This document shows, one piece after another, positions 1-19,460 of a stretch of DNA of 64,000 nucleotides. Numbering within the stretch: the first letter of the stretch is position 1; each line of letters starts with the position of its first letter. The notes under the pieces are model-generated. The model saw only the letters and a list, made by a program, of their open reading frames with translations, was not told the DNA's origin and ran no database searches. Origin of the DNA: an uncultured virus (IMG/VR IMGVR_UViG_3300036761_000818). Taxonomy: Duplodnaviria > Heunggongvirae > Uroviricota > Caudoviricetes. A program made the translations under genes and the position numbers. The stretch lies in IMG/VR virus record IMGVR_UViG_3300036761_000818, one strand, 5' to 3'.

Positions 1-1540
1 CAGAGTTGGCCGACGCCGAGGCTGCGGCTCCGATCGCGATGGAAAGAATGCCCCCCGCCGAGGCTGCGGCTCCTACCGCGCTGGAAGAGGTTCCTGTCGC
101 CTGTGCGTCTCTTCCGATCGCGGTGGCGTCGGTGGCGAGAGCATCGGCGCTGAAGCCGAGAGCGACCCCGTTCGTGACGCTTGCAGTCGAGTTCGCTCCG
201 ACCGCGACGCCCCCGGTGCCGTTCGCGACGGCGCTGGAGCCGACCGCCAAGGCGTCCACAGCGTTCGCGACGACGAGTTGCCCGAGAGCGGTCGCCCGGT
301 TCGCTTGTGCGCGAGAGTTATACCCGAACGCAGACCCTCCGAAGTTCACGTTCGCGAGCGCGTTCTGGCCGACCGCCGTGCAGTCCTCGGCGGCGTTTGT
401 CGTCTGCCCGATCGCGACGGCGTTCTGAGACGCCGCACTGGCGGCGAACCCGACCGCGACGGCGATGTTCCCTGCGTTGGCGGCGAAGCCTACTGCGACT
501 CCCTGAAGGCCGGAGGAGTTCGATCCCCCGCCAACCGCGACGCCTCCTCCTGCGAAGGTCGCTGTTGCACCCTGGCCGATCGCTACGTTGTTGGCTTGTG
601 AGGAGACGGAGTTCCCCCCGATCGCGATCGTAGTGACCCCCGTCGCTGCGGCGTTGGTGCCGATTGCGATCGAAGAGGCGGTGCTTGCGCTCGGGTTGAA
701 CCCGATGGCGACGGCCGAGGCGCCAGCCGCGTTCGCAGTATCACCGATCGCTACCGCTCTTGTTCCTGCGGCGTTGGAGGAGATTCCGAGAGCTACCGCT
801 GAAGAGGCCAACGCCATAGATGTGTTGCCGATCGCGACTGCGTTAGCCCCTCCGACTGTGGCGCTGACGCCGAGCGCTACCGATCCAGAGAATGGAGCGG
901 CGCTGCCGAATCCGATGGAGACGGCGCTCAGAGCCCCCACTGCCGCGATGGAGCCGAGTATCGCGACGCAAGTATTCGCCGCGGCGCTCACGCCGTCGCC
1001 AATCGCGACGCTCTGGAGCCCGGTGACGGAAGCGAGGTTGCCGACCGCGACCCCGCCGCTTACCGTGACCGCCGTTCCGAATCCAACCGCTACGGAGTTC
1101 GGTCCAGAGGCAACCGAAGTCGCGCCGACCGCGAGCGACGACACACCCGTCGCTTGCGTGCTTGCGCCGAATTGCTCCGACCCCGCCGGAGCGCCAGGAC
1201 CAGGACACGAGATCGAGCCGCCGAGATGGCCAACCGCCGCGTTGAGCTTGAAGAGCGGATCGACACCTGCCGCGGCCTGTGTGAACTCGACAGGGAAACC
1301 GGAATCGATGGCGATGAGCCGACCGCCGTGCGGCGTCGTCCCACCGACGTTCACAGAGTCGTAGGCGTCGTCGAGACTGCCGATGATTGCTGGACCGGCG
1401 ATCCCGATGGCCACGTACGGAGCGCCGTTCAGCGATATGAGCAGGTTCGACCCGTCGTAGTACATCCGTAGCGCATTCGCAGCGGACACGCCGGGGCTCG
1501 ATCGGGCGGTGAAATCAAGCAGTGCGCCTTGAACGTACAT
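1..1540 (-). CDS. Fibre/spike protein 4 with YadA-head-like beta-roll repeats (3' end outside window)
   Basis: Not in ORF track. ATG at 1540 after GGGAGA; reads MYVQGALLDFTARSSPGVSAANALRMYYDGSNLLISLNGAPYVAIG, then A-I/V-G repeats toward the window edge. Confidence 0.8.
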   Translation of the reverse strand, partial: MYVQGALLDFTARSSPGVSAANALRMYYDGSNLLISLNGAPYVAIGIAGPAIIGSLDDAYDSVNVGGTTPHGGRLIAIDSGFPVEFTQAAAGVDPLFKLNAAVGHLGGSISCPGPGAPAGSEQFGASTQATGVSSLAVGATSVASGPNSVAVGFGTAVTVSGGVAVGNLASVTGLQSVAIGDGVSAAANTCVAILGSIAAVGALSAVSIGFGSAAPFSGSVALGVSATVGGANAVAIGNTSMALASSAVALGISSNAAGTRAVAIGDTANAAGASAVAIGFNPSASTASSIAIGTNAAATGVTTIAIGGNSVSSQANNVAIGQGATATFAGGGVAVGGGSNSSGLQGVAVGFAANAGNIAVAVGFAASAASQNAVAIGQTTNAAEDCTAVGQNALANVNFGGSAFGYNSRAQANRATALGQLVVANAVDALAVGSSAVANGTGGVAVGANSTASVTNGVALGFSADALATDATAIGRDAQATGTSSSAVGAAASAGGILSIAIGAAASASANS

Positions 1541-1549
1541 TCCGTCTCC

Positions 1550-1618
1550 CTACATCGCCACGTAGGCGCCGCCGTTTTCCGACTTCTCGAAGACGTTCGT
1601 CATGCCGTTATACCTCAT
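1550..1618 (-). CDS. Possible 22-aa mini-ORF or fibre-anchor remnant (MRYNGMTNVFEKSENGGAYVAM)
   Basis: Fills the gap between two fibre genes and resembles their shared N-terminal motif. Confidence 0.3.
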   Translation of the reverse strand: MRYNGMTNVFEKSENGGAYVAM

Positions 1619-1638
1619 CCGCTGGCGCGACGGCCATG

Positions 1639-4284
1639 TCAGTTCAGTACGCGCATGGTTCGGAACCCGGCGCCACCGGAGTTCGCGGCCCCGACCTCGA
1701 CGCGCCGCTGGCCGATGCTCGGGATGTCGATCAGGATGTTCGAGTTGTCGATCGCAGGGACGATCGCGTCGATCTGAAGCTGCGTGACGTAGGTCAAACC
1801 TGATCCGACGCGAGCCGTGCGGACCCGGAAGTCGCCGCTCCGATCCGCAGCAGCGCCGCCGAGCCCCGGCTCGATCCACAAGTCCCACCCGTTGATCCCG
1901 GCTGCGTTGCCAGCCGAGGACCGCGTGCGGAAGATGTCGGGGGCACCGCTCGTCTCACCGCCGCCCCCTCGGAACGTGGTGATCGGGAAGAGGTTCGACC
2001 CCATGTTGCAGTTCGAGGCGATCGTGGAGGTCGCGCCGTTCCCGATCGCGATGGCGCCGAGCGCCGACGCCGAAGCGGACGAACCGATCGCGATGGCGCC
2101 CGTGCCGCCAGCCGCGCTCGCGAGACGCCCGAGCGCCACGCAAGCGGAGGCAGGACCGCCGCCAGCGACCGCCGCCTGTCCGACCGCGACGGACCCGAGG
2201 TCCGAGGTCGCGCTCTGGCCGATCGAGACGCCGTTCCCCGCGATCCCGCACGACGCCGCCTGTCCGACCGAGACGGAGAGCGAACCGCCGCAGCCCGAGG
2301 CGTGCCCGACCGCGACGCATTGGACCGCGCCGCTGAAGGTGATCGCGTTCCCGACCGCGACCATGCCGAAGTTCGCGGCGGGGGTGAGAACGATGCTGTG
2401 GCCGATCAGCGTGCAGTTCGTCTGGACGTTCGTGAGCGCCGTGGTCCCTGATCCGATGACGATCGGGAGGACCGCGAGAGCGGTAGCGGAGAGCGAGTTG
2501 CCGATGAGGATGCCGCTCGCCGCGAAACAGGAGATGGTGGAACCGATCACGACGACATCGGCGTCTCCGGCGAGCGATGCCTCTCCGATCACGACGGAGG
2601 TGAGCGAGGCCGCGCTCGCCGACGAGTTATTGCCGATGACGACGCTGCTCGTAGCGGCACTTGTGCTGCTCGCCCCGATGCAGATCGAGTCGATCCCCGA
2701 CGCCACCGAGAAGAAGCCGAACGCCATCGCGCGGAGCCCGCTCGCGGTCGCGAGGCGCGCGAGGGCGATCGTGAAGCCTCCGGTGCAGGACGCGCTCGTC
2801 CCGATCGCGATGCCGTCCTGGCTGGCGCCGGTGTTCACGTTCGCGCCGCTCCCGATCGCGATGGCGTTGTTCGTCACGCACGTCGCGAGGAGCCCGATTG
2901 CGATGGCGCTCGCTCCCGTCGCCGGGATGGTCGCGACGTTGCCGATCGCGATGCCGGAGTTGCCGAGGCACGTTCCGCCCTGGTGCGTGATGCAGATGCC
3001 GTACTGATCGGCGACGGAGTCCTTGCCGATCGCGGTGGCTTCCGTCATCCCCTGCGCCTTCGCGTTGTTGCCGATCGCGATCCCGACCGTCGTGGCCGAC
3101 GCCACGCTGTTCGGGCCGATCGCGATCGAACCGGCGCCTCCCGAGACGATCGCGTTGATCGCGACGGAGCCGGTCGAGCCAGCGATGACGTTTGGTCCGG
3201 TTCCGATCGCGACGGAGTCGATGGCGTTCGCGCCAGCGAAGAACCCGATCGCGACCGTCCTTGTGGCGGTGCAGGTAGCGGAGCCGATCGAGATACCGCT
3301 CGACGCCGCCGCCGTGACGGTTCCCCGGATGGCGATGGCGAGGTTCGCCCCGACCGGGATGCTGGAGTTGATCCCGACCGCTCCGGCTGCGGCGACCGTG
3401 AACCCGACACCGATCGCGACGGTCCCGTTCCCGGTCGCCATCGCGCTGTTGCCGATCGCGGTCGAGCCGACGGCGGCTGCGGTGGCATTCGCGTTCGTGC
3501 CGATCGCTGTCGAGAAGGCGCCGGTAGCTGTCGCCGCGCGCCCGAGCGCGACCGCATCGACGGCGAGCCCCGTGTTTGCGTCGCGGCCTATCGCGATCGA
3601 GAAGTCGCCGAGGACTCCGGTGGCGCGCCCGATCGCGATGCCGTCGATGCTCGTCGAGACGGAGAGGAACCCGATCGCGACGCCAGCGACCCCGTTCGCG
3701 ACCGCCGAGACGCCGAGAGCGGTGGCGCCGTTCGCGGAACACGTCGCCCCCGCGCCGAGCGAGGTTGCGTCGGTCACGCCCACACCCGTCGTGGCGCTGA
3801 ATCCGACGGCGGTGCTATTGGCGCCAGAGGCGGCAGCGAGGCTACCGAACGCCGCGCCTCCGTTCTGCGTTGCTTGCGCGCCGTTGCCCACCGCTGTCGC
3901 TTGCGCGGCTGGCGCCGCTGCGCCAGCGCCGAATTGTTCCGAGCCAACACCCCCTAAACACGAAACCTCGCCGCCCGTTACGAGCAGCGCGACGCCGCCA
4001 GCGCCGACAAGCGCGACGGGGAAGCCAGCCGCTACGTTGATGATCCGGCCAGCCGTCGGAGCGGCGCCGCCGACGGGCGTTGTGTTGTAGGCGTCGCCAA
4101 GGCCCCCTGCGCCAGTCCCGCCACCTACCGGGCCGTACGGCGAGCCGTTGAGCGAAACGAGGAGCGTCACCCCGTCGAACACCATCCGCGCTGTGTTCGG
4201 AGTGGACGGGAACGTCTCGGCCATGTTCTGCGCGGCGTACGCGAAGATCGGCGCTAAGATGATCTCGTTCGGCGTATCAAACAT
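1639..4284 (-). CDS. Fibre/spike protein 3, YadA-head-like repeats, 881 aa
   Basis: Dozens of ~14-aa xxA(I/V)Gxx(A/S)xA repeats; N-terminal RMVFDGVTLLVSLNGSPY motif; no signal peptide or beta-barrel anchor. Confidence 0.85.
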   Translation of the reverse strand: MFDTPNEIILAPIFAYAAQNMAETFPSTPNTARMVFDGVTLLVSLNGSPYGPVGGGTGAGGLGDAYNTTPVGGAAPTAGRIINVAAGFPVALVGAGGVALLVTGGEVSCLGGVGSEQFGAGAAAPAAQATAVGNGAQATQNGGAAFGSLAAASGANSTAVGFSATTGVGVTDATSLGAGATCSANGATALGVSAVANGVAGVAIGFLSVSTSIDGIAIGRATGVLGDFSIAIGRDANTGLAVDAVALGRAATATGAFSTAIGTNANATAAAVGSTAIGNSAMATGNGTVAIGVGFTVAAAGAVGINSSIPVGANLAIAIRGTVTAAASSGISIGSATCTATRTVAIGFFAGANAIDSVAIGTGPNVIAGSTGSVAINAIVSGGAGSIAIGPNSVASATTVGIAIGNNAKAQGMTEATAIGKDSVADQYGICITHQGGTCLGNSGIAIGNVATIPATGASAIAIGLLATCVTNNAIAIGSGANVNTGASQDGIAIGTSASCTGGFTIALARLATASGLRAMAFGFFSVASGIDSICIGASSTSAATSSVVIGNNSSASAASLTSVVIGEASLAGDADVVVIGSTISCFAASGILIGNSLSATALAVLPIVIGSGTTALTNVQTNCTLIGHSIVLTPAANFGMVAVGNAITFSGAVQCVAVGHASGCGGSLSVSVGQAASCGIAGNGVSIGQSATSDLGSVAVGQAAVAGGGPASACVALGRLASAAGGTGAIAIGSSASASALGAIAIGNGATSTIASNCNMGSNLFPITTFRGGGGETSGAPDIFRTRSSAGNAAGINGWDLWIEPGLGGAAADRSGDFRVRTARVGSGLTYVTQLQIDAIVPAIDNSNILIDIPSIGQRRVEVGAANSGGAGFRTMRVLN

Positions 4285-4311
4285 GGCTCAGTTCACCCCC
4301 AATTACCACGA

Positions 4312-5637
4312 TCACGGTGGAGCGATCGGCGTCACGGTGCCCGCCGCGCCCTTGAATGAGAGCCCGCCCGCCGGATCGACGAAGAAGATGCCAACGCCGG
4401 GCGTCGGACCGCCCGGCGGAACGAGGACGGCGGGCATCGAGACGACGACGCCGAGCGCACCGCCGTACATGCCCGACGCGGCGGTGCCGAAGGAAATCTG
4501 CGGCGTCCCATCGATCCGAAAGTCGTTGATGGGGAACCCCACGGAGCCGATCTTGCACTGCGCCGACGCCACGCAGATCGCACCGCGCCCGAGCGCGATC
4601 GAGCCCGTGAAGGCCGGAGGCCCGCTCGCTGCGCCTCGCCCGATGATCGTGTTGTTGCCGCCGATCGCGGACCCGCCTACGGTTACTGAATCCGCGCCGA
4701 TAGCCACGCCGCCGATTGCGATCCCATTCGTGCCAGCCGCGACGTTCCCGAACCCGATTGCGATGCTGCCCGGCCCTGGCGCCGTCGCGCTCGGTCCGAT
4801 CGCGATCGATGGCGCACCGGACGCAAGGGAACCGGGGCCAATCGCGATGCAGTTGAGAGCGGGGGCGGCTGCGCTGTGCCCGATGGCAACCGCTTCTGCG
4901 CCGAGCGTGGTCGCAGTTCGTCCCACGGCGACGCTGTTGCCTCCAGAGGCCGCAGCGGTGAACCCTACGGCGACATCGGCGAGCCCCGTGGCGGAAGAGA
5001 TGCCTCCCACGGCGACCGAGCCAGACCCACTCGCCGCCGCAGTGTTGCCGAGCGCCATGGAGTTCTGATTCGTCGATGACGTGAGGCTCCCGAGCGCGAT
5101 GGCGTCCTGCCCCGTGGCCGATGCTTGGTGCCCGACGGCGAGGCACCCGGACGCTCCGTCAGCGACCGCCTGATAGCCGAATGCGTTGCACGCGAACGTG
5201 GCGCTGACGAAGCCCGCGTTCGTCTGGAAGCCGAAAGCGTTGCTGGAGGCGCTCGCTCTCGCCCCCGAACCGAATGCGCACCCCTCGACGCCCGAGACGA
5301 TCGACGCCGCCCCGAAGTGCTCCGTGTTGGCGCCTCCGACCGGATCGGGGCTGGAGATCACGCCACTCGGGACGAGGAGCGCCGTCCCGAGCGCCGCATC
5401 GGAGATCGTGACGGGCACCCCGGGAAGGATCGCGATCGACTGACCGACGTTGTACGCCGCCTGAAGCGAGACAGCGCCGAGCGTCCCGATCGCGACGTAC
5501 GGAGCCCCGTTCAGCGAAGCGACGATAGTCGTGCCGTCGTAGATCATCCGCGCCGACCCGAGGACTGACGGACCCGCCTCGACGGCGGAAATGCCCGCAA
5601 GGCCGACTACCTCGAATCCTGCTCCAGCGTGCGCCAT
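4312..5637 (-). CDS. Fibre/spike protein 2, YadA-head-like repeats, 441 aa
   Basis: Same repeats; RMIYDGTTIVASLNGAPY motif; C-terminus GGLSFKGAAGTVTP shared with the next paralogue. Confidence 0.85.
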   Translation of the reverse strand: MAHAGAGFEVVGLAGISAVEAGPSVLGSARMIYDGTTIVASLNGAPYVAIGTLGAVSLQAAYNVGQSIAILPGVPVTISDAALGTALLVPSGVISSPDPVGGANTEHFGAASIVSGVEGCAFGSGARASASSNAFGFQTNAGFVSATFACNAFGYQAVADGASGCLAVGHQASATGQDAIALGSLTSSTNQNSMALGNTAAASGSGSVAVGGISSATGLADVAVGFTAAASGGNSVAVGRTATTLGAEAVAIGHSAAAPALNCIAIGPGSLASGAPSIAIGPSATAPGPGSIAIGFGNVAAGTNGIAIGGVAIGADSVTVGGSAIGGNNTIIGRGAASGPPAFTGSIALGRGAICVASAQCKIGSVGFPINDFRIDGTPQISFGTAASGMYGGALGVVVSMPAVLVPPGGPTPGVGIFFVDPAGGLSFKGAAGTVTPIAPP

Positions 5638-5649
5638 CTTCTCCCTTTC

Positions 5650-7983
5650 CTACGCCGGAGCGAGCGGCGTCACGGTGCCCGCCGCACCCTTGAACGAGAG
5701 CCCGCCAGCCGCATTCACGAAGATGATGCCGACGCCCGCCGTTGCGCCCGCTGGCGGTGCGGCGTTGCTCGGCATGGCGAGAACGACGCCAGTCGATCCG
5801 CCGTAGACGCCAGCCGCCGCCCCGAGGCCGACCTTGGGTGTCCCAACGAGCCGGAACTCGTTCACCGGATTCGCGCCCGACCCGATCACAAGCTGATTGA
5901 CGGCCGTCGTGACCGCCAACGCACCGATCGCGATCGAGGACGCGAAGGCGGCGTTGGCGGTGAAGCCGAGAGCGACCGCTGCGGGCGCCGCTGCTGGCGC
6001 GGTGGCGAGTCTTCCGAGCGCAACAGAGTTCAAGCCGCCGCACGCCGAGTTCACGCCGATCGCGATCCCACCGTCGCCGATGGAAGCGGACATGAACCCG
6101 ATCGCGATGCTGCCCAAGGCGGTAACGGCCGAGCTTACTCCGATGCAGATGGCATTGATTCCACCGGCGAGAACGTCGGCGTTACGACCGATGCCTATGC
6201 CAGAGTTCGCAAGGCAGAACCCGCCACCGATCTGCATCCCCGTGAGCGACGTGACGACCGAGGCTTGGCCGATCGCCAAGGAGTTCCCGAGGGCGCAACT
6301 GGCAGTCGATCCGATGACCGTGCAGTTACTCGCGACGGAAGACGCGGTGTTGCCGATGATTACGCAGTCAGACGCCGCGGCCCCCGCGGTAGCGGCGAGC
6401 CCGATCGCGATGCTACCGCTTGCCGCGCCACCCGTAGACGCTCCAGAGCCGATCACAACGGAAAAGGGGGCATTGGCCGCGGAAGAGTTCCCGACCGCGA
6501 TTCCATTCGCCGCCGCGACGGCAACCGTCGCGAGATTACCGCACGCGACGGAGAAAGCGGCGTTTGCGACGCTGAAGGGACCGACGGCCAATGCGGCGGT
6601 GGCGATTGCGTTTGCGGAGTTCCCGATGGCAACGCAGTTCGCTGCGCTCGCGAGCGTGGCGAACCCGATGCTGACGCCCTGCACTCCGGCGGGGGCGACG
6701 GTGGAGGTCAGGCCGACGGCGACGCCGTTGACGGATAGGGCCGAGCCGCCTCCGACCTGGACGGAACCGACTCCCGTCGCGATTGCGCTGGCACCGATCG
6801 CGGTCGCGTTCAGACCCGCTTGGGCGAGGTTCCCGACAGCCGTTGCCCCGAGGCCAATGATCGCGACAGCGTTCGAGCCGAGTGCTACGTTGCCAGCGAA
6901 CGTCGCCTGAGAGGACGGCCCGATCGCTACGGTGCCGAGGTTGGTCGCAGAAGCCAAGTTGCCGAGGGCGACAGCGGAGACGCCGGTTGCCGAAGCTGAT
7001 TGCCCGACCGACGTGGCGTTGGCTCCCGAGGCGACTGCACCGTTCCCGACCGCAGTGGCCGCTGCTCCACCAGCGCTGGCGAGATTGCCGAAATGCTCCG
7101 AGAGCACACCGCCCGCTCCCGGGCAAGAGATAAACCCGGTCGGGACGAAGATCGCTACCTGCGCAGCGGACCCCTGATCCACGACGAGCGCCGTGGCCCC
7201 TGCTGCGCCGTTCTGCGTCAGCGTGAGGAGCGCAGAGCCGAACGCGCCTACGTTCGTGAGCGCGACTGGACGAGCGTTCGCCGTGATGCCGATCGCGTTC
7301 CCGCCGACGTAGGCGCTCTGGAGCGTCGGCGGCGAGCCCGTGACGAGCGAGACGTAGGGCGCTCCGTTATAGCTCACCTGCAAGGCGGCAGGAACGCCGT
7401 TGCTGTAGCGCAGTCGGAACTCGCCCGGCGCGCTCACGGGCGCCGTTGCGCCGTTCGTCCCTTCGAGGATCGCGGTCTGCGTTCCGCCCAAGTTGTTCAG
7501 GCCCCGGAAGTTCGCGCCCGTAGCACCAAGGCTCGCCACGGTGGACGTGATAACGGGATCGGGGTTGAACGCGCCGGAGACAAGAGCGTTGATCGCGCCG
7601 CCCGTGCCGCCCGTCGAGGACGCGCCGAGAGCGAAACCTGGACCGCCGCCGGGGTGGACGAAGCTGACCATCGTGCTGCTGACGACAGGGTTGCCGTTGA
7701 CCGTCAATATCGATGATACGTTGGCGCCGGGGTTCGAGAGCGCGACTGGCCCCAAGCCGCCGATGCCGATCGTAGAGCCGCCGTTGTACGCCGACTGGAG
7801 GCTACCAGGGCCACCTACGGTCCCGATGCCCACGTACGCCGCGCCGTTGAGAGAGGCGAGGATCGTCGTTCCGTCGTAGTAGATGCGTGCCGAGCCAAGG
7901 ACCGAGACGGGAGGAAAGTCAGGGGGCGGCACACCCTGTAGCCCGTAGACGGTTGATGATACTGCGCTTTCTTGGACCGACAT
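5650..7983 (-). CDS. Fibre/spike protein 1, YadA-head-like repeats, 777 aa
   Basis: Start moved to MSVQES (ATG 7983, GAGGGAGG RBS); RIYYDGTTILASLNGAAY motif, a second copy LRYSNG..SYNGAPY, then repeats. Confidence 0.85.
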   Translation of the reverse strand: MSVQESAVSSTVYGLQGVPPPDFPPVSVLGSARIYYDGTTILASLNGAAYVGIGTVGGPGSLQSAYNGGSTIGIGGLGPVALSNPGANVSSILTVNGNPVVSSTMVSFVHPGGGPGFALGASSTGGTGGAINALVSGAFNPDPVITSTVASLGATGANFRGLNNLGGTQTAILEGTNGATAPVSAPGEFRLRYSNGVPAALQVSYNGAPYVSLVTGSPPTLQSAYVGGNAIGITANARPVALTNVGAFGSALLTLTQNGAAGATALVVDQGSAAQVAIFVPTGFISCPGAGGVLSEHFGNLASAGGAAATAVGNGAVASGANATSVGQSASATGVSAVALGNLASATNLGTVAIGPSSQATFAGNVALGSNAVAIIGLGATAVGNLAQAGLNATAIGASAIATGVGSVQVGGGSALSVNGVAVGLTSTVAPAGVQGVSIGFATLASAANCVAIGNSANAIATAALAVGPFSVANAAFSVACGNLATVAVAAANGIAVGNSSAANAPFSVVIGSGASTGGAASGSIAIGLAATAGAAASDCVIIGNTASSVASNCTVIGSTASCALGNSLAIGQASVVTSLTGMQIGGGFCLANSGIGIGRNADVLAGGINAICIGVSSAVTALGSIAIGFMSASIGDGGIAIGVNSACGGLNSVALGRLATAPAAAPAAVALGFTANAAFASSIAIGALAVTTAVNQLVIGSGANPVNEFRLVGTPKVGLGAAAGVYGGSTGVVLAMPSNAAPPAGATAGVGIIFVNAAGGLSFKGAAGTVTPLAPA

Positions 7984-7996
7984 CGACAGCCTCCCT

Positions 7997-8326
7997 CTAC
8001 TTGAGTCCCAAGATGATCTCTGGCGACTGAACGACGGCGCCGTTCGTGAAACGCCCGCGGACGTGCTCGCCAGTCCTCGGCACATTGATCGAGATGAAGC
8101 CAGCGGCGAGCAGCACGAACGAATCCGTGGTGACGTACGTTGACGAGGCGTTGAGCCGCTGAAGAACATCGAGCGTGCCGCCGCCGGAAGGCATCCTCAC
8201 GAAGATGCTGATCTCGTCCCACCCGTACGACGGCGCGTTCTGAGAATCGGCGATGCCGCCGACGGCGAGAGCGACGTTGGTCGCGTTGCGCCGGAAGAAC
8301 CGCATCGGTCGCCGAATCGTCTGCAT
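7997..8326 (-). CDS. Small beta-rich putative virion protein, 109 aa
   Basis: GGAGA RBS, tight operon spacing, alternating hydrophobic pattern. Confidence 0.7.
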   Translation of the reverse strand: MQTIRRPMRFFRRNATNVALAVGGIADSQNAPSYGWDEISIFVRMPSGGGTLDVLQRLNASSTYVTTDSFVLLAAGFISINVPRTGEHVRGRFTNGAVVQSPEIILGLK

Positions 8327-8335
8327 GGTCTTCTC

Positions 8336-8644: not shown

Positions 8645-8656
8645 CTCATTCTCCCT

Positions 8657-9382: not shown

Positions 9383-9394
9383 GCGGCCTCTCCT

Positions 9395-10273: not shown

Positions 10274-10301
10274 CTCGTTCCTCTCATCCTTGAAGGGACC
10301 G

Positions 10302-10333: not shown

Positions 10334-10352
10334 TAACCTTCGGTTCCCTGGC

Positions 10353-11003: not shown

Positions 11004-11032
11004 GTGACGATCTCCTTCAACGAATCCCTTGA

Positions 11033-11059
11033 GGGGCGCCCGGACCTCCCGGGCGCCCC
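11033..11059. other. 11-bp stem-loop upstream of candidate major capsid gene
   Basis: GGGGCGCCCGG-acctc-CCGGGCGCCCC. Confidence 0.7.
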
Positions 11060-11074
11060 GTCATGAACTTCCCG

Positions 11075-12454: not shown

Positions 12455-12457
12455 GGC

Positions 12458-13063
12458 CTATCTCCTGATCCAATCCCGGTGCTCATATGACCCGCCCAAC
12501 TGGCTCTGAACGCCGGTGTCCACATCCACCGCATGGATCGGAGGCTTGCCCCCGTCCTCTCGATGCGAGTGAATCCACTGCGTCCCTGCCTTGTTCGATC
12601 GGTCTTTTGACCCGACCGTGTAGACGGTTCCAATCTTGATCGGCTTGATCCTGACTTCGTTCCCCTTCGCGTCCTCAACGGTGTCGATCTCGATCTCTGC
12701 CGTGCCGACCTTGAACATGAGCCGCACATCGTCCAGGTCAAGTCCGTCATCATACTCGAAGACCCGCACACGCGAAGGGGGAGAACCATGAAACTCTGTG
12801 TACCTCTTGATGGCCTTCTCGATTCCGGGCACGTCGGACACTTCGTCGAGCGAAAGCGTGTACTCCTTGTAGCGCTTGCCGCGGTTCTTAGCGGCTGTCT
12901 TGCCTCCGGCAACCCGGCGCAGAAGCTCCTTTTTCCTCTCGGAAAGCTCATGCGAACCAGCGTTCCCGCACGGACTGTTCACGGCGCCGATCGTCATGAG
13001 GACGCCGTTGGTCGCAACGCGCCTCGGACGACCCTGCTTGTCAGCGACGAGAACAGTCCTCAC
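12458..13063 (-). CDS. Putative virion protein with YTEFHG and WIHSHRE motifs, 201 aa
   Basis: GTG start overlapping the upstream TGA (GTGA); globular-looking C-terminal half. Confidence 0.65.
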   Translation of the reverse strand: MRTVLVADKQGRPRRVATNGVLMTIGAVNSPCGNAGSHELSERKKELLRRVAGGKTAAKNRGKRYKEYTLSLDEVSDVPGIEKAIKRYTEFHGSPPSRVRVFEYDDGLDLDDVRLMFKVGTAEIEIDTVEDAKGNEVRIKPIKIGTVYTVGSKDRSNKAGTQWIHSHREDGGKPPIHAVDVDTGVQSQLGGSYEHRDWIRR

Positions 13064-14052
13064 TTGCTGCGACTCCTCCGGTTCTTCCGCCAGTTCTTCC
13101 CGACCGCGAGTGACGTGAGCTTCCCCGCTCCCTTCGCGAGCCCGAGGACGGGCGACAGGTACGTGTAGGCGACGAACCCGATGACGCCCACGCCAGCGAG
13201 CTTCGCCCACCACGGGATGAGGCTCCAGCCGAACGCCGCGATCTTGCCCGCGCCCTCCTTGACCTGTTCGCCCGCGTGGAGGCCCTTCGCGATGAGCGCT
13301 GCGTCGCCGCCGCCCGCTTCCGCCGCTGCCTGTTCGATCGCTTCGCGGTTGAACCCCGTCGCGCCAGCCGTGAACGCGCCGGTCGCGATGATTCCGGTCC
13401 CGACGCTGCTCATCGCGACGCGCTGGAAGAGCGACGGCTGATCGCGCGCGATCTCGGCCTCGATCTGTTTCTTGCGCGCCTCCGATGCCATCGCGTACTC
13501 GGACCACTGCGCTTCGTTCTTCCCGCCGTGCGTCAACTGGAACTGGCTCACGTCGCCGCTCATGACGTACCCGGCGAGCGTCCGCGCGAGCGCGACGTTA
13601 CGCTGCGCGCTCACAACGTCCTCGTCGGGGTACTCCTCTGCGTGTGCGAGGACCGCGAGGCTCTGCCTCGCGAACTCGTTGACGTAGGTGAGAAGGAAGT
13701 CTCGCGCGTCAGGATCAACGACGCGCCCGGCGAGCGCATTGGCGTCGGTGAAGTCGCCATCCCGCTTGTTCCCGGTGGCGAGGTCGATCTCCTGAAGCGA
13801 TGAGCGTGCCGCCGCCATCGCGGCGTCCTCGACGCCGCCGAGCGGTGCGCCGAGCATTCCGAGCCCGGAGAGCCGAAGCGCGTTCCGGCCGTACCCCCAC
13901 GGAGGGTAGTTCCAGCCGATCGTCGGTAGCTCGATGGTCGTCGTGTCGCGAGCGAGAAGCCCGAAGCCCTGCGGTTCGTTGCCGGGCATGTCGTAGCGCG
14001 ACAGGCTGAACCCTGGTGCTTGGCGACCGGCGAGTCCGAGGTATCCACCCAT
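13060..14052 (-). CDS. Putative virion membrane protein with C-terminal TM anchor, 330 aa
   Basis: IPWWAKLAGVGVIGFVAYTYL followed by a basic tail; LRLSGLGML motif. Confidence 0.75.
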   Translation of the reverse strand: MGGYLGLAGRQAPGFSLSRYDMPGNEPQGFGLLARDTTTIELPTIGWNYPPWGYGRNALRLSGLGMLGAPLGGVEDAAMAAARSSLQEIDLATGNKRDGDFTDANALAGRVVDPDARDFLLTYVNEFARQSLAVLAHAEEYPDEDVVSAQRNVALARTLAGYVMSGDVSQFQLTHGGKNEAQWSEYAMASEARKKQIEAEIARDQPSLFQRVAMSSVGTGIIATGAFTAGATGFNREAIEQAAAEAGGGDAALIAKGLHAGEQVKEGAGKIAAFGWSLIPWWAKLAGVGVIGFVAYTYLSPVLGLAKGAGKLTSLAVGKNWRKNRRSRSK

Positions 14053-14058
14053 CTCGGT

Positions 14059-14697
14059 CTATCTCCCCTTCGTCGCAAACCAGAGGAGGCCACCGCCGAC
14101 AGCGACTCCGGCGACAACCACCCACGGCTTCTTCCACCACGGCGTCATCTCCGCGATGGCCGCTTCGTTCCTTGCCGCGTCCTGCACGGCCTTCTGCGTG
14201 GCCGTCTGGAGCGTTGCCGCAGCCGCGTTCGGCTTCGTGCCGACGCCGAACGCCTGGAGCGTCGCGACGGCACCGCGGACGCCGCCGCCGCCAGCTTCGT
14301 ACGCCTGATAGGCGCCGGGGAGCTTCTCCACGATCGTCGGCACTTGCTGGAGCCCCGTCGAGAGCACGTCGAACCACTCCAGCCCGCGGGGCGCTTCCTG
14401 CGGTCGCGTCTGCGATTCGGGAGGGATCACGACCTCGGCGAGCATACCGAGCCCGGAGAGCCGAAGCGCCGTGTTGCGCGGCGGGGTGTCGAGCCACTCG
14501 CCCATCCCGTACATGCTGCCGTGGGGGCGCTTCGTGTCGAGCCACTCGCCCAACCCGTACAGGGTGCCGTGAGGGCGCCTCGTGTCGAGCCACTCGCCCA
14601 TTCCGTACATGCTGCCTGGGCGGCGGCGCGTGTCAAGCCACTCGCCCATTCCGTACAGCGTTGAAGGAAGGGTCGCTGCTGCTCCGTAGCCTCTCAT
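14059..14697 (-). CDS. Putative virion membrane protein with N-terminal 16-aa repeats and C-terminal TM anchor, 212 aa
   Basis: 4x YG(M/L)GEWLDT; ends PWWKKPWVVVAGVAVGGGLLWFATKGR. Confidence 0.8.
   Translation of the reverse strand: MRGYGAAATLPSTLYGMGEWLDTRRRPGSMYGMGEWLDTRRPHGTLYGLGEWLDTKRPHGSMYGMGEWLDTPPRNTALRLSGLGMLAEVVIPPESQTRPQEAPRGLEWFDVLSTGLQQVPTIVEKLPGAYQAYEAGGGGVRGAVATLQAFGVGTKPNAAAATLQTATQKAVQDAARNEAAIAEMTPWWKKPWVVVAGVAVGGGLLWFATKGR
14486..14657. repeat. Coding tandem repeat, 48-bp period, four copies of the core
   Basis: GTGTC(G/A)AGCCACTCGCCCA starts at 14486, 14534, 14582 and 14630. Confidence 0.9.
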
Positions 14698-14706
14698 CTC
14701 GCTCTC

Positions 14707-16509
14707 CTACGTCTTGACCATTGTTCGTGTCGTCAGTCGAGGCGCTACGACCGGCTTGCGAACGTAGTGGCGCACGAGCGGCTGATCCGGCGCTGGCGCC
14801 GTTTCCGCGAGGATGTCCACAATCTCCACGCAGCACGGAGCCAACCGTGCCGCCACAACGCTTCCTCCGAAGTTCAACACGTCGCTGATGGGAGGAGGTG
14901 ACGGCGCCGCGCCGGGCTCGATGAGGATTGCCTGGATTCCTGGGTCGAGGAAGCGGCGATCGAGGCTCCACGCACTCAGGTCCGCTCCGGTGAGTCCAAG
15001 AGCCTGTTCGACGGTCGCAACCTCGATCTCCGGCACGCCGCCAAGGTCCGCGATCTCCTTTCGGAGCGCTTCAAGCTCGACTTCGAGCGCGTGAAGTTCG
15101 ACGAGACGCCTCTGCTCTTCAACGGCTCGCCGCTCGGCCACCTGCCGCTCGACGATGCGTGTCGTCTCCCTCATCATCTGGAGTTGGAGTAGCGTCGTCG
15201 CCGCCGACATCGCGAGCTTCGCAGCCTCGATCGCTGCGACGATGATCGCCCCCGCGCCGAACGTGACGATCGTGATGACGACGGCCTGAACGACCTCGAA
15301 GACGGCGCGGGCGATGATGACCCATCCCGTGTTCGCGTACTTCGCCTGGATCATCGCGATCTCAAGCCGGAGCCCATCTCGCTTCTCGCGGGAGGTCTGC
15401 GCCTGGATCGTTAGCTCGGTGAGGGCGAGCGTCGGGAGCGTCTGGAAGATGTCGAGCTTGTTCATCGCCTTCACGGTTTCGCCGAGGAAGGCGTTAGTCT
15501 CGTCGGGGAACACGTAGGCGTAGAACGCAGGGCTCGTCGCCGCTCCCCATGCAAGGGACATGAACGCGCTGCCGTACGAAGCGATGAAGGCGTCCATCGC
15601 GGCGAGCACGATCGCGAGCGGCGGGAACACGAACGAAACGATCGCCACGAGAATCTCGATCGCAGCGACGCGCGCGATCCCGCGAGCCACCGTGTTGATC
15701 CACCATTCCTGGGAGCCGAGGTTGCGGCCCGTGCGGGCGATCTCGGCCTGTGCGCGGTTCCCGAACCGCTTGAGTTCTTCCCACACGTCGTTGAGGCTCA
15801 CGACCAGCGTCCAGCCGAGGGAGTAGCTGAGTACCTGCGCCGTGTCGCGATACCACTGCGGATCGGTGAGGTGGGCGACCGCTCGCTGCGCTTCAGCGGA
15901 CGAGCGCTGCATCGTCCGCTCGACCTCCGCAAACGTCCGGTCGAATCCTCGCTCGACTTCGCTGAACGCCGCCTGGAGCCTGTCCTGCCAGAACCCCGCG
16001 TCGGCGATATGATCGAACGTCCGCTCGATCTCGTCTCCAACTCGATTCCCTACGCGCTCGGCCTCGGTCCATGTGCGCTTCCAGGTGCGGATCGTCTCGT
16101 TGTAGATGGAATCCACAACGCGCCCGACCGTATCGTTCCACACGTTGCTGATGCCGCCGCCGACATCGCTGAAGAAGCTGCTCGCCCACGAACCGAGTCC
16201 AGGGCCTCGCCGGGCGAACCCGATGACCTCGCCGCTCTCGTTCAAGACGAGCGTCCGGTAGCCGCTGGCCGCGCTCCGGCGGTAGCCCGTCATCGATCCG
16301 AGTCCACGGACGGATGGCGCGAAGACCGGCCTGATGCCCATCTGGTTGAGGCGCTCCGACGGCCCGACCGCAGCCGCAATCGCCTGAATCTCGGGCGGCA
16401 TCGTCCGCATCATCGCCTCGAAGAGCGAGTAGCGAATGAGCGACCTGAACTCGCGCTCGGTGAAGCTCGCTTCGTCGATCTCGGGCAGGATGTCGGCCTG
16501 ATTGCTCAC
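14707..16509 (-). CDS. Large helical multi-TM putative virion/entry protein, 600 aa
   Basis: Amphipathic helical tract, several hydrophobic segments, C-terminal coiled coil. Confidence 0.75.
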   Translation of the reverse strand: MSNQADILPEIDEASFTEREFRSLIRYSLFEAMMRTMPPEIQAIAAAVGPSERLNQMGIRPVFAPSVRGLGSMTGYRRSAASGYRTLVLNESGEVIGFARRGPGLGSWASSFFSDVGGGISNVWNDTVGRVVDSIYNETIRTWKRTWTEAERVGNRVGDEIERTFDHIADAGFWQDRLQAAFSEVERGFDRTFAEVERTMQRSSAEAQRAVAHLTDPQWYRDTAQVLSYSLGWTLVVSLNDVWEELKRFGNRAQAEIARTGRNLGSQEWWINTVARGIARVAAIEILVAIVSFVFPPLAIVLAAMDAFIASYGSAFMSLAWGAATSPAFYAYVFPDETNAFLGETVKAMNKLDIFQTLPTLALTELTIQAQTSREKRDGLRLEIAMIQAKYANTGWVIIARAVFEVVQAVVITIVTFGAGAIIVAAIEAAKLAMSAATTLLQLQMMRETTRIVERQVAERRAVEEQRRLVELHALEVELEALRKEIADLGGVPEIEVATVEQALGLTGADLSAWSLDRRFLDPGIQAILIEPGAAPSPPPISDVLNFGGSVVAARLAPCCVEIVDILAETAPAPDQPLVRHYVRKPVVAPRLTTRTMVKT

Positions 16510-17078
16510 CGCTTCGTCAGCCCCGCAAGTCCGATTGGTCCGAGTGCCGCCTTCAACTGGTCACGCTGCGCGTGCGAGCGAGCCCTCTGGTCTTCGAGAT
16601 GCTTCTTCGCAGCTTCAAGCGCCGCGTACGCTCCCTGCTCGTCCTGGAACGCCTTGAGGGCGCTGTCTGCGCCCTGCTGAAGCTCCCGGGACATCGTGAT
16701 GACCTCGGTTTGCTTCTCGGCCGAGTTCGCGTCGGAAGCCTCGGCCATCTCCCTCATTCTCGTGGCGGCGCCCGCCTCCGTCTCGTCGCCCATGATCTGG
16801 TTCATGAGCCGGTTCTTTTCGTCGATCGCGATCTGAGGATTCGTGAAACACTGCCTCTGGTACGACACGTTCTCGCAGCGATCCGTGGTGGTGCATGTGA
16901 ACGACCGCTGCGCCTCGGCGATCTCGGCACGCCTCAAGCCGATGCAGTGCTGCGACACGAGCGGAATCGCGCCCATCCCGCCCGGCCTCGGAACGGCCAG
17001 ATGTTCTCCGACGCTCGCGCGACCGTAGCCGGTCGGCGGCTTCATGGTGTCGGCCATCTGGTCGCTGATGAACGCCAC
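16506..17078 (-). CDS. Hypothetical coiled-coil putative virion protein, 190 aa
   Basis: GTG overlapping the upstream TAG; four Cys then coiled coil. Confidence 0.65.
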   Translation of the reverse strand: MAFISDQMADTMKPPTGYGRASVGEHLAVPRPGGMGAIPLVSQHCIGLRRAEIAEAQRSFTCTTTDRCENVSYQRQCFTNPQIAIDEKNRLMNQIMGDETEAGAATRMREMAEASDANSAEKQTEVITMSRELQQGADSALKAFQDEQGAYAALEAAKKHLEDQRARSHAQRDQLKAALGPIGLAGLTKR

Positions 17079-17476
17079 TACCGGCGCCGCCTCCCCTTGA
17101 AGAACCACAGGAGCCCGCCGCCGACGCCGAGCGCGCCGAGCGCGACGCCCCACATCGGCAGACCGAAGTACCCGCTTGGCGCGACGACCGGGAGTGAGCC
17201 AGGGGCCGCTCCTCCCGTCGGATCGACCCGCTGCGTCGCGAGGAGCGCGATCCGCGCCCTCTCGGCCTCGGCGGCGGCTCTCACCTGGGCGATCTCGGCC
17301 TCGATCCGCCGCTTCTCGTTGTCGAGTTGGTCCTTGCGGTCGTTCATCTGCTCGAAGCCCTGGTAGGCGTTCCAGCCCGCCGAGCCCGCCTGGACAGCGG
17401 TGTTGATGACCGCGAGCGCCGCGTCGAGTTGACCGAGGCGTCCGATGAGGCCCGAGAACCCTGCGTATCCTGACAT
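17078..17476 (-). CDS. Putative virion membrane protein with C-terminal TM anchor, 132 aa
   Basis: Ends MWGVALGALGVGGGLLWFFKGRRRR, similar to the tail of 14059-14697. Confidence 0.8.
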   Translation of the reverse strand: MSGYAGFSGLIGRLGQLDAALAVINTAVQAGSAGWNAYQGFEQMNDRKDQLDNEKRRIEAEIAQVRAAAEAERARIALLATQRVDPTGGAAPGSLPVVAPSGYFGLPMWGVALGALGVGGGLLWFFKGRRRR

Positions 17477-17477
17477 C

Positions 17478-18413
17478 TTACGCCTCCCCCTTCTTGCTCT
17501 TCTTCATGGCGCGGCCGATGAGGAGGCCGACGACGAATCCCGCGGCGAGCTTGATCCAGTCCTCCCTCGACTTCGGCGTGATGAGGTCGAGGAGCCCGCC
17601 TCCCGTCTCGGTGACATCGAACTCCGACGGACCGGCGTAGCCGTACGTCGGGCCGAGCCCGTCGGGGCCTCCTGCGCTTCCGCCCTGCGGCGCGAGCGCC
17701 GAAGCGCCGGGCGAACCGATCTGAACGATGCTCTGACCGCCGTAGGCGACGGCGCTCGACCCTCCAGGGGGTGGGTACGTCTGCATCTTCATCTCCTCGG
17801 GGCAGCAGATGCGCACCGGCAAGCAGCACGGCACTCCGTCTGGCGGCTCACGCGGCGGCTCACGCGGCGGCTCCTGCGGAGGCAACCACGGCGGCTTCAT
17901 GACGGGCGGCTTGCCGTTGGGCGGCAGCTTGGGCGGGTACTTGGGAGGGAACAGCGGAGGGAACAGCGTGACCTCTGGAACCTTGAACTCCGGCGGGTTC
18001 TCATCCCACTTCGGCGGCAACCTGCTCGGAGGGTACTTCGGGAAGAGCGGCTCCAGGGGTAGTTCGAGCCTGATCCCCGCTTGCTTCTCGGCCTCGTACT
18101 TCCGCGTCGGGACGAGAGACGACGCCTCAACCTTGGCGACGAGTTCCGGGTCGATGTAGGGCAGCGCCATGTCGCCGCGCTGCGCATCGTCCTTCTGGAC
18201 GGTGTACTCGGGAGCCTCGTTCTGGTACTCCTCGGAGGGCTCGAACCGGAAGCGGAAGAGGAACTCTTCCTTCGTGAAAAGCTCTCCGCTACCCTCGGGG
18301 TCGCGGTAGATCGCGAGGTCGGAACCGAGCCCCTGCATGGGGCCGATGGCCACCGGCCCCGTCAGGTCGCGCGTCAAGATGATCGGTTGAAAGCGTTGAT
18401 ACTGGCGGGCCAC
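17478..18413 (-). CDS. Pro-rich putative virion membrane protein, 311 aa
   Basis: PLFPKYPP/PLFPPKYPP and EPPR repeats; C-terminal TM plus basic tail; GAGGA RBS before GTG. Confidence 0.75.
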   Translation of the reverse strand: MARQYQRFQPIILTRDLTGPVAIGPMQGLGSDLAIYRDPEGSGELFTKEEFLFRFRFEPSEEYQNEAPEYTVQKDDAQRGDMALPYIDPELVAKVEASSLVPTRKYEAEKQAGIRLELPLEPLFPKYPPSRLPPKWDENPPEFKVPEVTLFPPLFPPKYPPKLPPNGKPPVMKPPWLPPQEPPREPPREPPDGVPCCLPVRICCPEEMKMQTYPPPGGSSAVAYGGQSIVQIGSPGASALAPQGGSAGGPDGLGPTYGYAGPSEFDVTETGGGLLDLITPKSREDWIKLAAGFVVGLLIGRAMKKSKKGEA

Positions 18414-18486
18414 GCAATCCTCGCTTTCCCGTCCGCGTCACACGCATCTTCATGCGCATCGACCGCAACTTACAGGGACGCAAGAG

Positions 18487-18515
18487 ATTGTATAGTTCTG
18501 TGGAGCAGCATTATG
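18487..18515 (-). promoter_or_regulatory. Candidate late promoter (-10 TACAAT, no consensus -35)
   Basis: TACAAT at 18487-18492 in the AT-richer gap ahead of the structural operon. Confidence 0.35.
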
Positions 18516-18552
18516 GAACAGGGAGTGCTTGTTTCGTCGGTTCGGAGTGGCG

Positions 18553-18855
18553 TTACGAGCCGAAGAGTTTGTCCATAAGTTCTTGCGGGCGCTTCTTCAA
18601 GAAGTAAACCTTGTACCCCTTCGCATCGAACTGAGATTCTATCTTGATGTCTGATTCTCGCAGCACCGCGACGAGCGCATACACGGCACGACGAGAGAGG
18701 TCAAGCTCCTCGCACATCTCCTTCACCGTGAGCCCGGGGAACGACGGAAGGATTGCGATCAGCTTGAGCGCCGAGCGCAAGCGGTTCTTGTGCCACTCGG
18801 AACTGCCGTTCCCAATGTTCTCGTTCGGCTTCTTGACCATCTTCTCGGGCGACAT
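18553..18855 (-). CDS. Winged HTH DNA-binding protein, 100 aa
   Basis: LTVKEMCEELDLSRRAVYALVAVLRESDIKIE matches an HTH_11-type pattern. Confidence 0.75.
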   Translation of the reverse strand: MSPEKMVKKPNENIGNGSSEWHKNRLRSALKLIAILPSFPGLTVKEMCEELDLSRRAVYALVAVLRESDIKIESQFDAKGYKVYFLKKRPQELMDKLFGS

Positions 18856-18857
18856 CT

Positions 18858-19460
18858 TCAGATTGGCCAGTCCTGCCGCGTCGCCACGCTGCGATGCTCC
18901 CATCCGAGTCCCTCCTCGTAGCTCGGGTCGGCCGAGAGCCAGCCCTTTCCAGGGATGTTGATGACGAGGTATACGTGCTCGAACTGATCGGGGTGCGCAG
19001 CGTCGGTGCCCGCCGTTCGGAACGCGATCTCGGCGCCGAGGCTCATGAGGACAGCCGCCATCGCCGTCGATAGGCTCGCGCACTCGCCCGTGCGAACGGG
19101 CGCATCGAAGAGCGTCTCGCTCGGCGTCTGGAGCCGTTGGAGCCCGTCGGGGTGCCACGGGAGCCTCGTGTACCGGAACGAGTCCTGGAACCACCGAAGG
19201 ACCGTCGCCGCTTCTCCCTCGTAGTCGCGTCGCGGAAGTTGGATCGTGATCTCGCGAGCGAGCCGGTTGATGCGCTCATCCTTGTACGCAGCGAGCACGA
19301 GCTTGCGCATCTCGTCGATGATCTCGGACGTGCCCTGGTAGCCGTCGGGGATTCCACGGATCGCAGCGAGCGGCCCGGCGCCGAGCGCACCGAGGCCGGT
19401 CGTCACCTTGCCGGAGCGCTCTTCCGGCGTGGGGTATCGTGGCGGCTGCGGACCGTACAT
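18858..19460 (-). CDS. Transglutaminase-like Cys-His-Asp enzyme (putative maturation protease), 200 aa
   Basis: TGECASLS (Cys), FEHVY (His), WLSADPS (Asp), preceded by WFQDSFRY. Confidence 0.85.
   Translation of the reverse strand: MYGPQPPRYPTPEERSGKVTTGLGALGAGPLAAIRGIPDGYQGTSEIIDEMRKLVLAAYKDERINRLAREITIQLPRRDYEGEAATVLRWFQDSFRYTRLPWHPDGLQRLQTPSETLFDAPVRTGECASLSTAMAAVLMSLGAEIAFRTAGTDAAHPDQFEHVYLVINIPGKGWLSADPSYEEGLGWEHRSVATRQDWPI

Follow-up and report, generated by a model that had tools for sequence, protein, structure and literature searches.

Positions 1-24,828 of the 64-kb stretch of DNA considered here (the window; 65% G+C; uncultured virus record IMGVR_UViG_3300036761_000818) are very probably the virion module of an uncultured tailless jelly-roll virus. 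The block most likely encodes the shell, the inner-membrane proteins and the fibres of a membrane-lined icosahedral double-stranded DNA (dsDNA) bacterial virus. The virus is known from its genes alone. The protein database gives a length of 89,641 bp for the source contig of the window proteins, and the genome is therefore at least 89.6 kb. The predicted virion is of the double-jelly-roll (DJR), membrane type. Its genome has at least twice the size of that of any cultured phage built in this way and is 2-10 times larger than those of cultured prokaryotic DJR viruses; its capsid family is unannotated, and a packaging ATPase was not detected in the 64 kb.

Predicted Jelly-Roll Capsid Proteins

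The assignment starts from two adjacent genes, which encode proteins of 292 and 216 amino acids (aa).

9395-10273, minus strand: double-jelly-roll capsid protein, 292 aa (predicted fold)
10353-11003, minus strand: single-jelly-roll capsid protein, 216 aa, candidate penton or second shell protein (predicted fold)

Homologues of the 292-aa protein number 23 (48-72% identity), and all are unnamed. Its AlphaFold2 model, built with the homologues, has a predicted local distance difference test (pLDDT) of 81.9 and a predicted TM-score (pTM) of 0.80, and contains two beta barrels joined by a helix. The AlphaFold2 model of the 216-aa protein, which is about as conserved, is a beta-rich jelly roll. Foldseek against PDB returned low TM-scores only (0.13-0.38), with PNGase F, PHM and the major capsid protein (MCP) of STIV among the matches; the two-barrel matches of the 292-aa model became visible only in the VIA all-against-all search. 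There the model aligns to the MCPs of STIV, PRD1 and PM2 across both barrels, over 213-243 residues, with scores of 10.0 for PRD1 P3 (243 residues) and 9.1 for PM2 P2 (213 residues), while the capsid proteins of phiCjT23, PBCV-1, FLiP and EhV-201 score 8.0-8.2. The single-barrel proteins of HHIV-2 and HCIV-1 and both VP16 and VP17 of P23-77 each cover one half of the model (101-120 residues).

The available part of PMC4958249 describes VP17 as two barrels stacked one atop the other. Since both barrels of the model align to DJR MCPs and only one to VP17, the 292-aa protein is, by its predicted fold, a vertical side-by-side double jelly roll of the STIV/PRD1/PM2 type and not of the VP17 type; the 216-aa protein is, on the same grounds of modelling, a single jelly roll. 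An MCP with two side-by-side vertical jelly rolls, as in the PRD1-adenovirus lineage (Bamfordvirae), is thus found at the level of the predicted fold. The arrangement of Helvetiavirae, with two single-barrel MCPs of which the large one bears a second barrel stacked on top, is not seen in the 292-aa model; sphaerolipovirus-type viruses (P23-77 with VP16/VP17, HHIV-2, HCIV-1) have two vertical single-barrel MCPs, in contrast to the side-by-side double barrel of the window. An earlier sequence-only reading of this DNA had supposed capsid jelly rolls in three adjacent beta-rich proteins (216, 292 and 241 aa), and the structural comparison it proposed, run for the first two, agrees with it: the best matches are capsid proteins of membrane-containing tailless viruses. 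The models correct it in one detail, giving one double-barrel (292 aa) and one single-barrel (216 aa) protein in place of three with single barrels. The role of large partner in a sphaerolipovirus-type pair can be dropped for the 292-aa protein, as its alignment to VP17 spans only 116 residues, one barrel.

At the sequence level the family stands apart from the known prokaryotic DJR viruses. Profiles of the 292-aa and 216-aa proteins have no PDB sequence match at E<=10, and none of 137 members of the 292-aa family has a Pfam match. The profile of this family finds 421 metagenomic clusters (50% identity) at E<=0.001, 172 of them at E<=1e-10, among 1.84 billion representatives. PHROG matches occur in 3 of 135 members: in P0182 and P0187 the matches, to 'virion structural protein' and 'tail fiber', sit in N-terminal extensions outside the jelly rolls, and in P0145 a weak match (E 3.2e-4) concerns a 65-aa family without known function.

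Similarity to Salisaeta Phage SSIP-1

SSIP-1 is a T=49 phage of 100 nm that contains an internal membrane; with its genome of 44 kb it heads the bacterial entries of Table 1 in PMC6260650 by size. The portions available of PMC6356626, PMC5332951 and PMC4958249 file it with the two-MCP single-barrel viruses. Its record (L004) is circular and 43,788 bp long, with gp34, gp46 and gp47 annotated as structural; gp46 and gp47 are adjacent (35324-36813) and have 211 and 256 aa. The window contains homologues of these structural proteins, of gp34 by sequence and of gp46 and gp47 by predicted structure only, the identity of the latter two resting on the reasoning given below.

18858-19460, minus strand: transglutaminase-like (papain-fold) protein, 200 aa (Transglut_core 26.2 bits, cut-off 23)

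This protein matches gp34 in BLASTP with 29% identity over 147 aa (66 bits, pairwise E 1e-17), and Transglut_core is found in both. By sequence comparison it is a homologue of the structural gp34. In tblastn of the transglutaminase-like protein against the GenBank phages, the gp34 match (E 2.3e-14) was printed at a limit of 10 and not at 0.01 or 0.001. An earlier 'No match' for this protein was a false negative of the settings, and other negatives obtained in protein mode with the phage collection could be as well.

Among the predicted viral structures of BFVD, the best match of the 292-aa model is I1ZBI0 (256 aa; TM-scores 0.60/0.67, E 2e-7), whereas the 216-aa model matches a single entry at E<=0.001, I1ZBH9 (211 aa). 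From the lengths and the consecutive accessions we infer that I1ZBH9 and I1ZBI0 are gp46 and gp47 of SSIP-1. Because the best viral matches of the window models fit gp46 and gp47, the large capsid protein of SSIP-1 may, judging from these models, be a double barrel, contrary to its filing in the literature.

Both viruses have a small-then-large pair of adjacent structural genes, many membrane proteins, long spikes or fibres, and a transglutaminase-like structural protein in common. They differ in genome size, 43,788 bp in SSIP-1 vs. at least 89,641 bp here and contigs of 61.7-119.6 kb in close relatives. Between their capsid proteins no similarity was detected at the sequence level, and no homologue of the P-loop structural protein gp40 of SSIP-1 (AAA_25) was found in the 64-kb window or in the complete relative described below; SSIP-1 has 57 proteins, and beyond the three structural ones none of the remaining 54 matches the window in BLASTP at E<1e-3. 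The large protein of the window is a predicted side-by-side double barrel, whereas the available literature treats SSIP-1 as a two-MCP single-barrel virus.

Relatives and a Complete Genome

A scan of metagenomes yielded three short contigs (L001, L002 and L003) with the 216-aa gene. The gene order is 216, 292, 241, 102 in L001 and 600, 201, basic, 216, 292 in L002 (numbers are lengths in aa of the window proteins), so that the order of the window is kept in two of the three contigs. It is kept in part in L003, where 330, 201, basic and 216 are followed by unrelated genes with a lower G+C content. GTDB genomes yielded no relatives. Among GenBank phages, megablast of positions 8000-20000 gave no match, and tblastn with the 292-aa protein, P0097 and P0077 gave none.

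A search starting from one subfamily of the 292-aa family retrieved one IMG/VR record, G001, the sole relative from the IMG/VR scans. It is 81,790 bp long and has a 123-bp terminal repeat and a CheckV completeness of 100%. Phmmer connects it with the window through the double jelly roll (1.1e-18), the single jelly roll (1.5e-11) and the transglutaminase-like protein (1.9e-13); the fourth gene in common is the Pif1/Dda helicase. The late block of G001 nevertheless follows the design seen in the window. It encodes a long coiled-coil protein, the transglutaminase-like protein and seven tail-anchored proteins that end in basic tails. A basic protein with three transmembrane helices comes next, then the single jelly roll followed by the double one; a Gly-rich fibre and beta-rich proteins are also present. 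Its transglutaminase-like gene (29250-30890; L008 9250-10890) carries an intein-like insert (Pfam Intein_splicing, E 6e-5) directly after the presumed catalytic Cys, and both flanks of the insert match the window protein and SSIP-1 gp34.

Library scans of the window covered 92 ORFs (open reading frames) each with Pfam and PHROGs and 63 with NCBIfam, and gave no match to terminase, portal, HK97 capsid or tail families in the 64 kb. The same families are missing from the matches of G001 (88 ORFs with Pfam, 72 with PHROGs), where a six-frame search with PF03237 (Terminase_6N), PF05065 (Phage_capsid) and PF04860 (Phage_portal) returned nothing at E<=1. The HK97-fold MCP, portal and large terminase of Caudoviricetes are therefore found neither in the 64 kb seen nor in G001. 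The strongest argument that the module is not an add-on to a tailed phage is that the complete G001 has the module and no tailed-phage hallmark. The sequence-only reading had noticed no such hallmark in the 64 kb and had supposed an unusually large lineage of jelly-roll, membrane-containing architecture; the library scans confirm the former, and the capsid-type folds, together with the lack of a tailed-phage module in the 64 kb or G001, support the latter.

Organisation of the Late Block

The gene layout was derived from frame-specific G+C content at third codon positions (GC3) and the ORF listing, and membrane segments from a hydropathy scan, except that the anchor of 17478-18413, below the threshold of the scan, was placed by eye. 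The minus-strand block runs from 24,828 down past the left edge of the window, and its length is at least 24.8 kb because the same-strand run continues beyond that edge. In the order of transcription, ten ORFs are followed by the genes of the transglutaminase-like protein, a helix-turn-helix protein and proteins of 311, 132, 215 and 600 aa, and then by those of 212, 330 and 201 aa, the basic 459-aa protein, the 216-, 292-, 241-, 102- and 109-aa proteins and four fibres. Strand and gene order are as the sequence-only reading had described them, and its single minus-strand operon holds, with the length of ~18 kb corrected upwards. The membrane-anchored proteins, the basic membrane-tethered protein and the minimum of four fibres that it listed were likewise recovered, the first two by the hydropathy scan and the last as four ORFs with YadA_head repeats (Pfam). 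The genes between the transglutaminase-like gene and the capsid genes are as follows.

18553-18855, minus strand: small helix-turn-helix protein, ~100 aa (HTH_11 24.3 bits, just under the cut-off of 25)
17478-18413, minus strand: Pro-rich 311-aa protein, hydrophobic anchor at the C-terminus, basic tail
17078-17476, minus strand: tail-anchored membrane protein, 132 aa, C-terminal transmembrane segment 108-126, then RRRR
16506-17153, minus strand: 215-aa ORF, a probable gene from the ORF listing, no family match
14707-16509, minus strand: multi-pass membrane protein, 600 aa, with a coiled-coil stretch and five hydrophobic segments; 34% identical homologue in L002
14059-14697, minus strand: tail-anchored membrane protein, 212 aa, with four Y-G-[ML]-G-E-W-L-D-T repeats
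13060-14052, minus strand: tail-anchored membrane protein, 330 aa, C-terminal transmembrane segment 285-303, then a basic tail; homologue in L003
12458-13063, minus strand: soluble 201-aa protein, conserved in L002 and L003 (41-43% identity), GTG start preceded by GGAGGAG
11075-12454, minus strand: basic protein, 459 aa, with a Lys/Arg-rich N-terminal part of ~300 aa, three transmembrane helices and a Gly-rich tail

At least six proteins of the block have transmembrane segments, four of them being tail-anchored, and the same set occurs in G001. The three hydrophobic segments of the basic protein lie at residues 315-374. Homologues of this protein stand at the same place in L002 and L003, and its analogue in G001 (430 aa, 25% Lys+Arg, three transmembrane helices) directly precedes the single-jelly-roll gene.

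In both viruses the membrane-anchored virion proteins contain 4-5 times more of the tripeptide G-[LM]-G than expected, and an aromatic residue often comes directly after it. There are 11 occurrences in those of the window (11075-18413) vs. 2.7+-1.6 in shuffles and 15 in those of G001 (36241-41317, 53596-54888) vs. 3.0+-1.7, the observed number being reached in 0 of 2000 shuffles in either case. The other proteins of the window have 11 vs. 10.6 expected. The motif is placed outside the transmembrane anchors and occurs also in the tail of the basic protein, past its three transmembrane helices.

Downstream of the capsid genes the block continues with three smaller proteins and the fibres.

8657-9382, minus strand: candidate vertex or spike-base protein, 241 aa; 32% identical homologue after the double-jelly-roll gene in L001
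8336-8644, minus strand: small protein, 102 aa, conserved beside the capsid genes; 42% identical homologue at the same place in L001
7997-8326, minus strand: small protein, 109 aa, candidate minor capsid or vertex protein; high-GC3 ORF, no family match
5650-7983, minus strand: fibre 4, 777 aa, ATG at 7983 (YadA_head E 7.2e-07)
4312-5637, minus strand: fibre 3, 441 aa (YadA_head E 3.1e-19), its C-terminal ~30 aa resembling those of fibre 4
1639-4284, minus strand: fibre 2, 881 aa (YadA_head E 4.2e-22)
2-1540, minus strand: fibre 1, >513 aa, start at 1540, C-terminus off the window (YadA_head E 2.5e-31)

The ESM Atlas model of the 241-aa protein has a pTM of 0.63, and its Atlas neighbours are unnamed viral proteins (score 0.95). 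The four fibres have an N-terminal domain of ~100 aa in common (35-42% identity). A ribosome-binding site and the fit to the other fibres in the alignment place the start of fibre 4 at 7983; the 62 codons at the beginning of the ORF 5650-8169 are probably noncoding. The upstream end of the block holds the remaining features.

19625-24828, minus strand: upstream part of the block, ten ORFs without family matches
21319-23304, minus strand: 661-aa coiled-coil protein within this part; a comparable 570-aa protein heads the late block of G001

Points Against and the Packaging ATPase

Several observations weigh against a tailless jelly-roll virus. The window leaves 25.6 kb of the 89,641-bp source contig outside the analysis. 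Relatives with a known phylum are mostly labelled Uroviricota (tailed phages) in the ESM Atlas. G001 and the window have only four genes in common, and neither BLASTP nor hhalign (probabilities 5.7% and 1.8%) connects the 292- and 216-aa proteins with gp46 and gp47 of SSIP-1 at the sequence level. In L003, glycosyltransferase-like, HNH/endonuclease-VII-like and methyltransferase-like ORFs (3731-6553) replace the double-jelly-roll gene; the contig may be chimeric through assembly or else represent a variant genome. The choice of the G-[LM]-G motif followed inspection of the sequences, and its enrichment is a lead only.

A further point concerns packaging. An FtsK/HerA (A32-like) packaging ATPase is a hallmark of the DJR virus lineage. 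None was found in the 64-kb window with Pfam, PHROGs, NCBIfam and P-loop scans, and none in the complete G001, where six-frame searches with Pox_A32 and FtsK_SpoIIIE had no match at E<=1 and canonical P-loops belong to helicases only. The sequence-only reading had itself pointed to the missing ATPase; this caveat is upheld for the window and now extends to the complete G001. A very divergent ATPase or, for the window, one encoded in the outlying 25.6 kb may be conceivable.

Three candidates for this enzyme were rejected. The 170-aa ORF 23921-24433 has 'GTGKT' in a Cys-rich context of a small protein. The 826-aa ORF of G001 has one GxxxxGKS and no further P-loop features. The 585-aa ORF 44627-46384 (minus strand) is a GHKL-type ATPase lookalike in the early region: it lies amid small ORFs, carries the ATP-binding N-box E-L-Y-Q-N-A-V-D-E and has a weak match to a sacsin-like ATP-binding domain (NCBIfam E 0.0013).

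Hairpins and Alternative Explanations

Within the preferred reading, the division of labour between the two jelly-roll proteins could be different from that in known DJR viruses. The single-jelly-roll 216-aa protein would then be an abundant, possibly even the main, shell protein and the double-jelly-roll protein would occupy only part of the lattice or special sites, which would make a hybrid shell, intermediate between those of two-MCP single-barrel and double-barrel viruses. We consider this less likely than the usual roles, though a serious option. Part of the evidence for it lies in the DNA around the 216-aa gene.

10302-10333, minus strand: perfect 13-bp GC hairpin, ending 28 nucleotides (nt) before the start of the 292-aa gene (z -4.44, 0/200 shuffles)
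11033-11059, minus strand: perfect 11-bp GC hairpin, ending 29 nt before the start of the 216-aa gene (z -3.56, 0/200 shuffles)

Among perfect hairpins with stems of at least 10 bp (ten in the whole window), these are the only two in the 25-kb late block, and the 216-aa gene lies between them. In L003 and G001, too, the single-jelly-roll gene has strong hairpins on its flanks; that of L001 is weak, and L002 has no significant ones. Neither hairpin of the window has a U-tract, and the terminator scan lists nothing there; there is therefore no sign of a transcription stop. Going by sequence, the hairpins probably set the stability or the amount of the mRNAs of the jelly-roll genes. Either they serve the stability or processing of both capsid mRNAs, or perhaps they lift the amount of the 216-aa product over that of the neighbouring proteins.

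Besides the bracketed gene and its counterparts in L003 and G001, a hybrid shell would be in keeping with the conservation of the 216-aa protein, close to that of the 292-aa protein, and with the fit of the best matches of both window proteins to adjacent structural proteins of SSIP-1. It would also be in keeping with the two MCP types ascribed to SSIP-1 in PMC6356626, PMC5332951, PMC4958249 and a table of PMC6260650. The hairpin argument is weakened by the fact that the second hairpin is equally near (28 nt) to the 292-aa gene, so that the pair may mark both genes for high expression, and also by the lack of U-tracts and of significant hairpins in L001 and L002. To our knowledge, every solved DJR virus has MCP trimers on its facets and makes its penton from a distinct single-barrel protein, whose gene is often a neighbour of the MCP gene; this argues against a hybrid shell.

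It is far less probable that the window belongs to a tailed phage whose HK97 head, portal, terminase and tail genes lie in the outlying 25.6 kb or are too divergent, the jelly-roll proteins being fibre-associated, decoration or carbohydrate-binding proteins. The window does cover only part of the contig, the Atlas relatives with a known phylum are mostly Uroviricota, two-sandwich proteins of tailed phages occur among the low-TM matches in BFVD, and both YadA-like fibres and an RnlA-type ligase ('tail fiber attachment catalyst') are found in tailed phages. However, the complete G001 contains the module and no hallmark, the full-length two-barrel alignments are to capsid proteins and not to fibre domains, and the block is rich in tail-anchored membrane proteins and encodes a counterpart, by homology, of a structural protein of SSIP-1. 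With fibres included, its 24.8 kb of late genes already make up a complete virion module.

Least credible of all is a plasmid-like element whose surface or secretion island would combine adhesin fibres and membrane proteins with a two-sandwich enzyme like DUF2961 or PNGase F: the fibres have no autotransporter anchor match, the neighbouring module (Erf, PrimPol, Dda/Pif1 helicase, MT-A70) is phage-like, G001 is a complete virus record with terminal repeats, SSIP-1 gp34, gp46 and gp47 are annotated as structural, no glycosidase family emerges as 0 of 137 family members have a Pfam match, and PNGase F and glycoside hydrolases of the DUF2961 type, 310-540 aa long, are enzymes of cells that lack a sequence or Pfam link to the window protein, which lies in a virion block.

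Proposed Virion and Its Size

For the tailless jelly-roll virus that we prefer, the virion could be built as follows. Trimers of the 292-aa protein would form pseudo-hexagonal capsomers, and the 216-aa protein would take the fivefold vertices or, less probably, act as a second abundant shell protein. The four fibres would plug into the vertices via their common N-terminal domain, like the spikes of adenovirus or PRD1. A lipid vesicle beneath the shell is suggested by the basic protein and the many tail-anchored ones. The latter would be inserted in it, with their G-[LM]-G-rich N-terminal parts facing the shell and their short basic tails facing the DNA; the orientation towards the shell is suggested by the place of the motif outside the transmembrane anchors and in the tail of the basic protein. 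The odd number of transmembrane helices in the 459-aa protein would put its N-terminal domain and its tail on opposite sides of the membrane. This protein would tie the genome to the membrane, with the protamine-like N-terminal domain on the DNA side and the Gly-rich tail on the shell side. The transglutaminase-like protein may be a virion enzyme for maturation or cell-wall entry. Scaling the DNA volume from the 43.8 kb of SSIP-1 to 89.6 kb gives ~1.27 times the diameter, which as a rough estimate would mean a particle of ~125-130 nm with T near 80.

More tentatively, and with some doubt on our part, the window may represent a widespread and so far undescribed lineage of bacterial viruses at the level of an order or class, with genomes of 80-120 kb, a double plus single jelly-roll shell over a membrane, and neither terminase nor FtsK/HerA ATPase. 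As a third way of filling a large capsid, the genome of such viruses might be condensed on the membrane-embedded protamine-like protein, the vesicle and shell assembling around it. PRD1 (Tectiviridae), PM2 (Corticoviridae), STIV (Turriviridae) and FLiP with phiCjT23 (Finnlakeviridae) have genomes of 9-18 kb in the part of PMC6260650 available, compared with 80-120 kb here. The available portion of the ANME-1 virome paper reports new DJR families of ~10 kb only. Searches of the literature found no description of jelly-roll phages of 80-120 kb, which is not proof of absence from print.

Other Genes of the Window

A plus-strand replication module at 25-40 kb includes Erf, an SF2 helicase, PrimPol and an MT-A70 methylase. 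It is followed at 40-59 kb by a run of small ORFs without an assigned role, and no tRNA genes were found in the 64-kb window. The right end holds a short XerA-like recombinase, an RnlA-type RNA ligase and a Dda/Pif1 helicase. The recombinase (59576-60112, minus strand) is an XerA/integrase-like tyrosine recombinase of 178 aa that consists of the catalytic domain only. It adjoins a weak coding signal at 58.5-59.5 kb and may be a remnant or a minimal resolvase of a circular genome. At 60534-63196 (plus strand) the T4 RnlA-type RNA ligase (PHROG 'tail fiber attachment catalyst', E 2.3e-36) precedes the Dda/Pif1 helicase, which at 39% identity is the best-conserved gene common to the window and G001.

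Significance

Among prokaryotic dsDNA viruses, large genomes are generally regarded as confined to tailed phages. Cultured tailless membrane-containing jelly-roll phages range from 9 to 44 kb in Table 1 of PMC6260650, with SSIP-1 as the largest. If the present assignment is true, a jelly-roll lineage of 80-120 kb would alter this view and would provide prokaryotic counterparts to the size expansion of eukaryotic DJR viruses. Virus-finding pipelines would miss a sizeable group because there are 421 metagenomic clusters, no Pfam match in 137 members, no relative found by tblastn among GenBank phages and one relative from the IMG/VR scans. The apparent lack of a packaging ATPase would raise the question of how such capsids fill, and the link to SSIP-1 bears on the relation between single- and double-barrel capsids.

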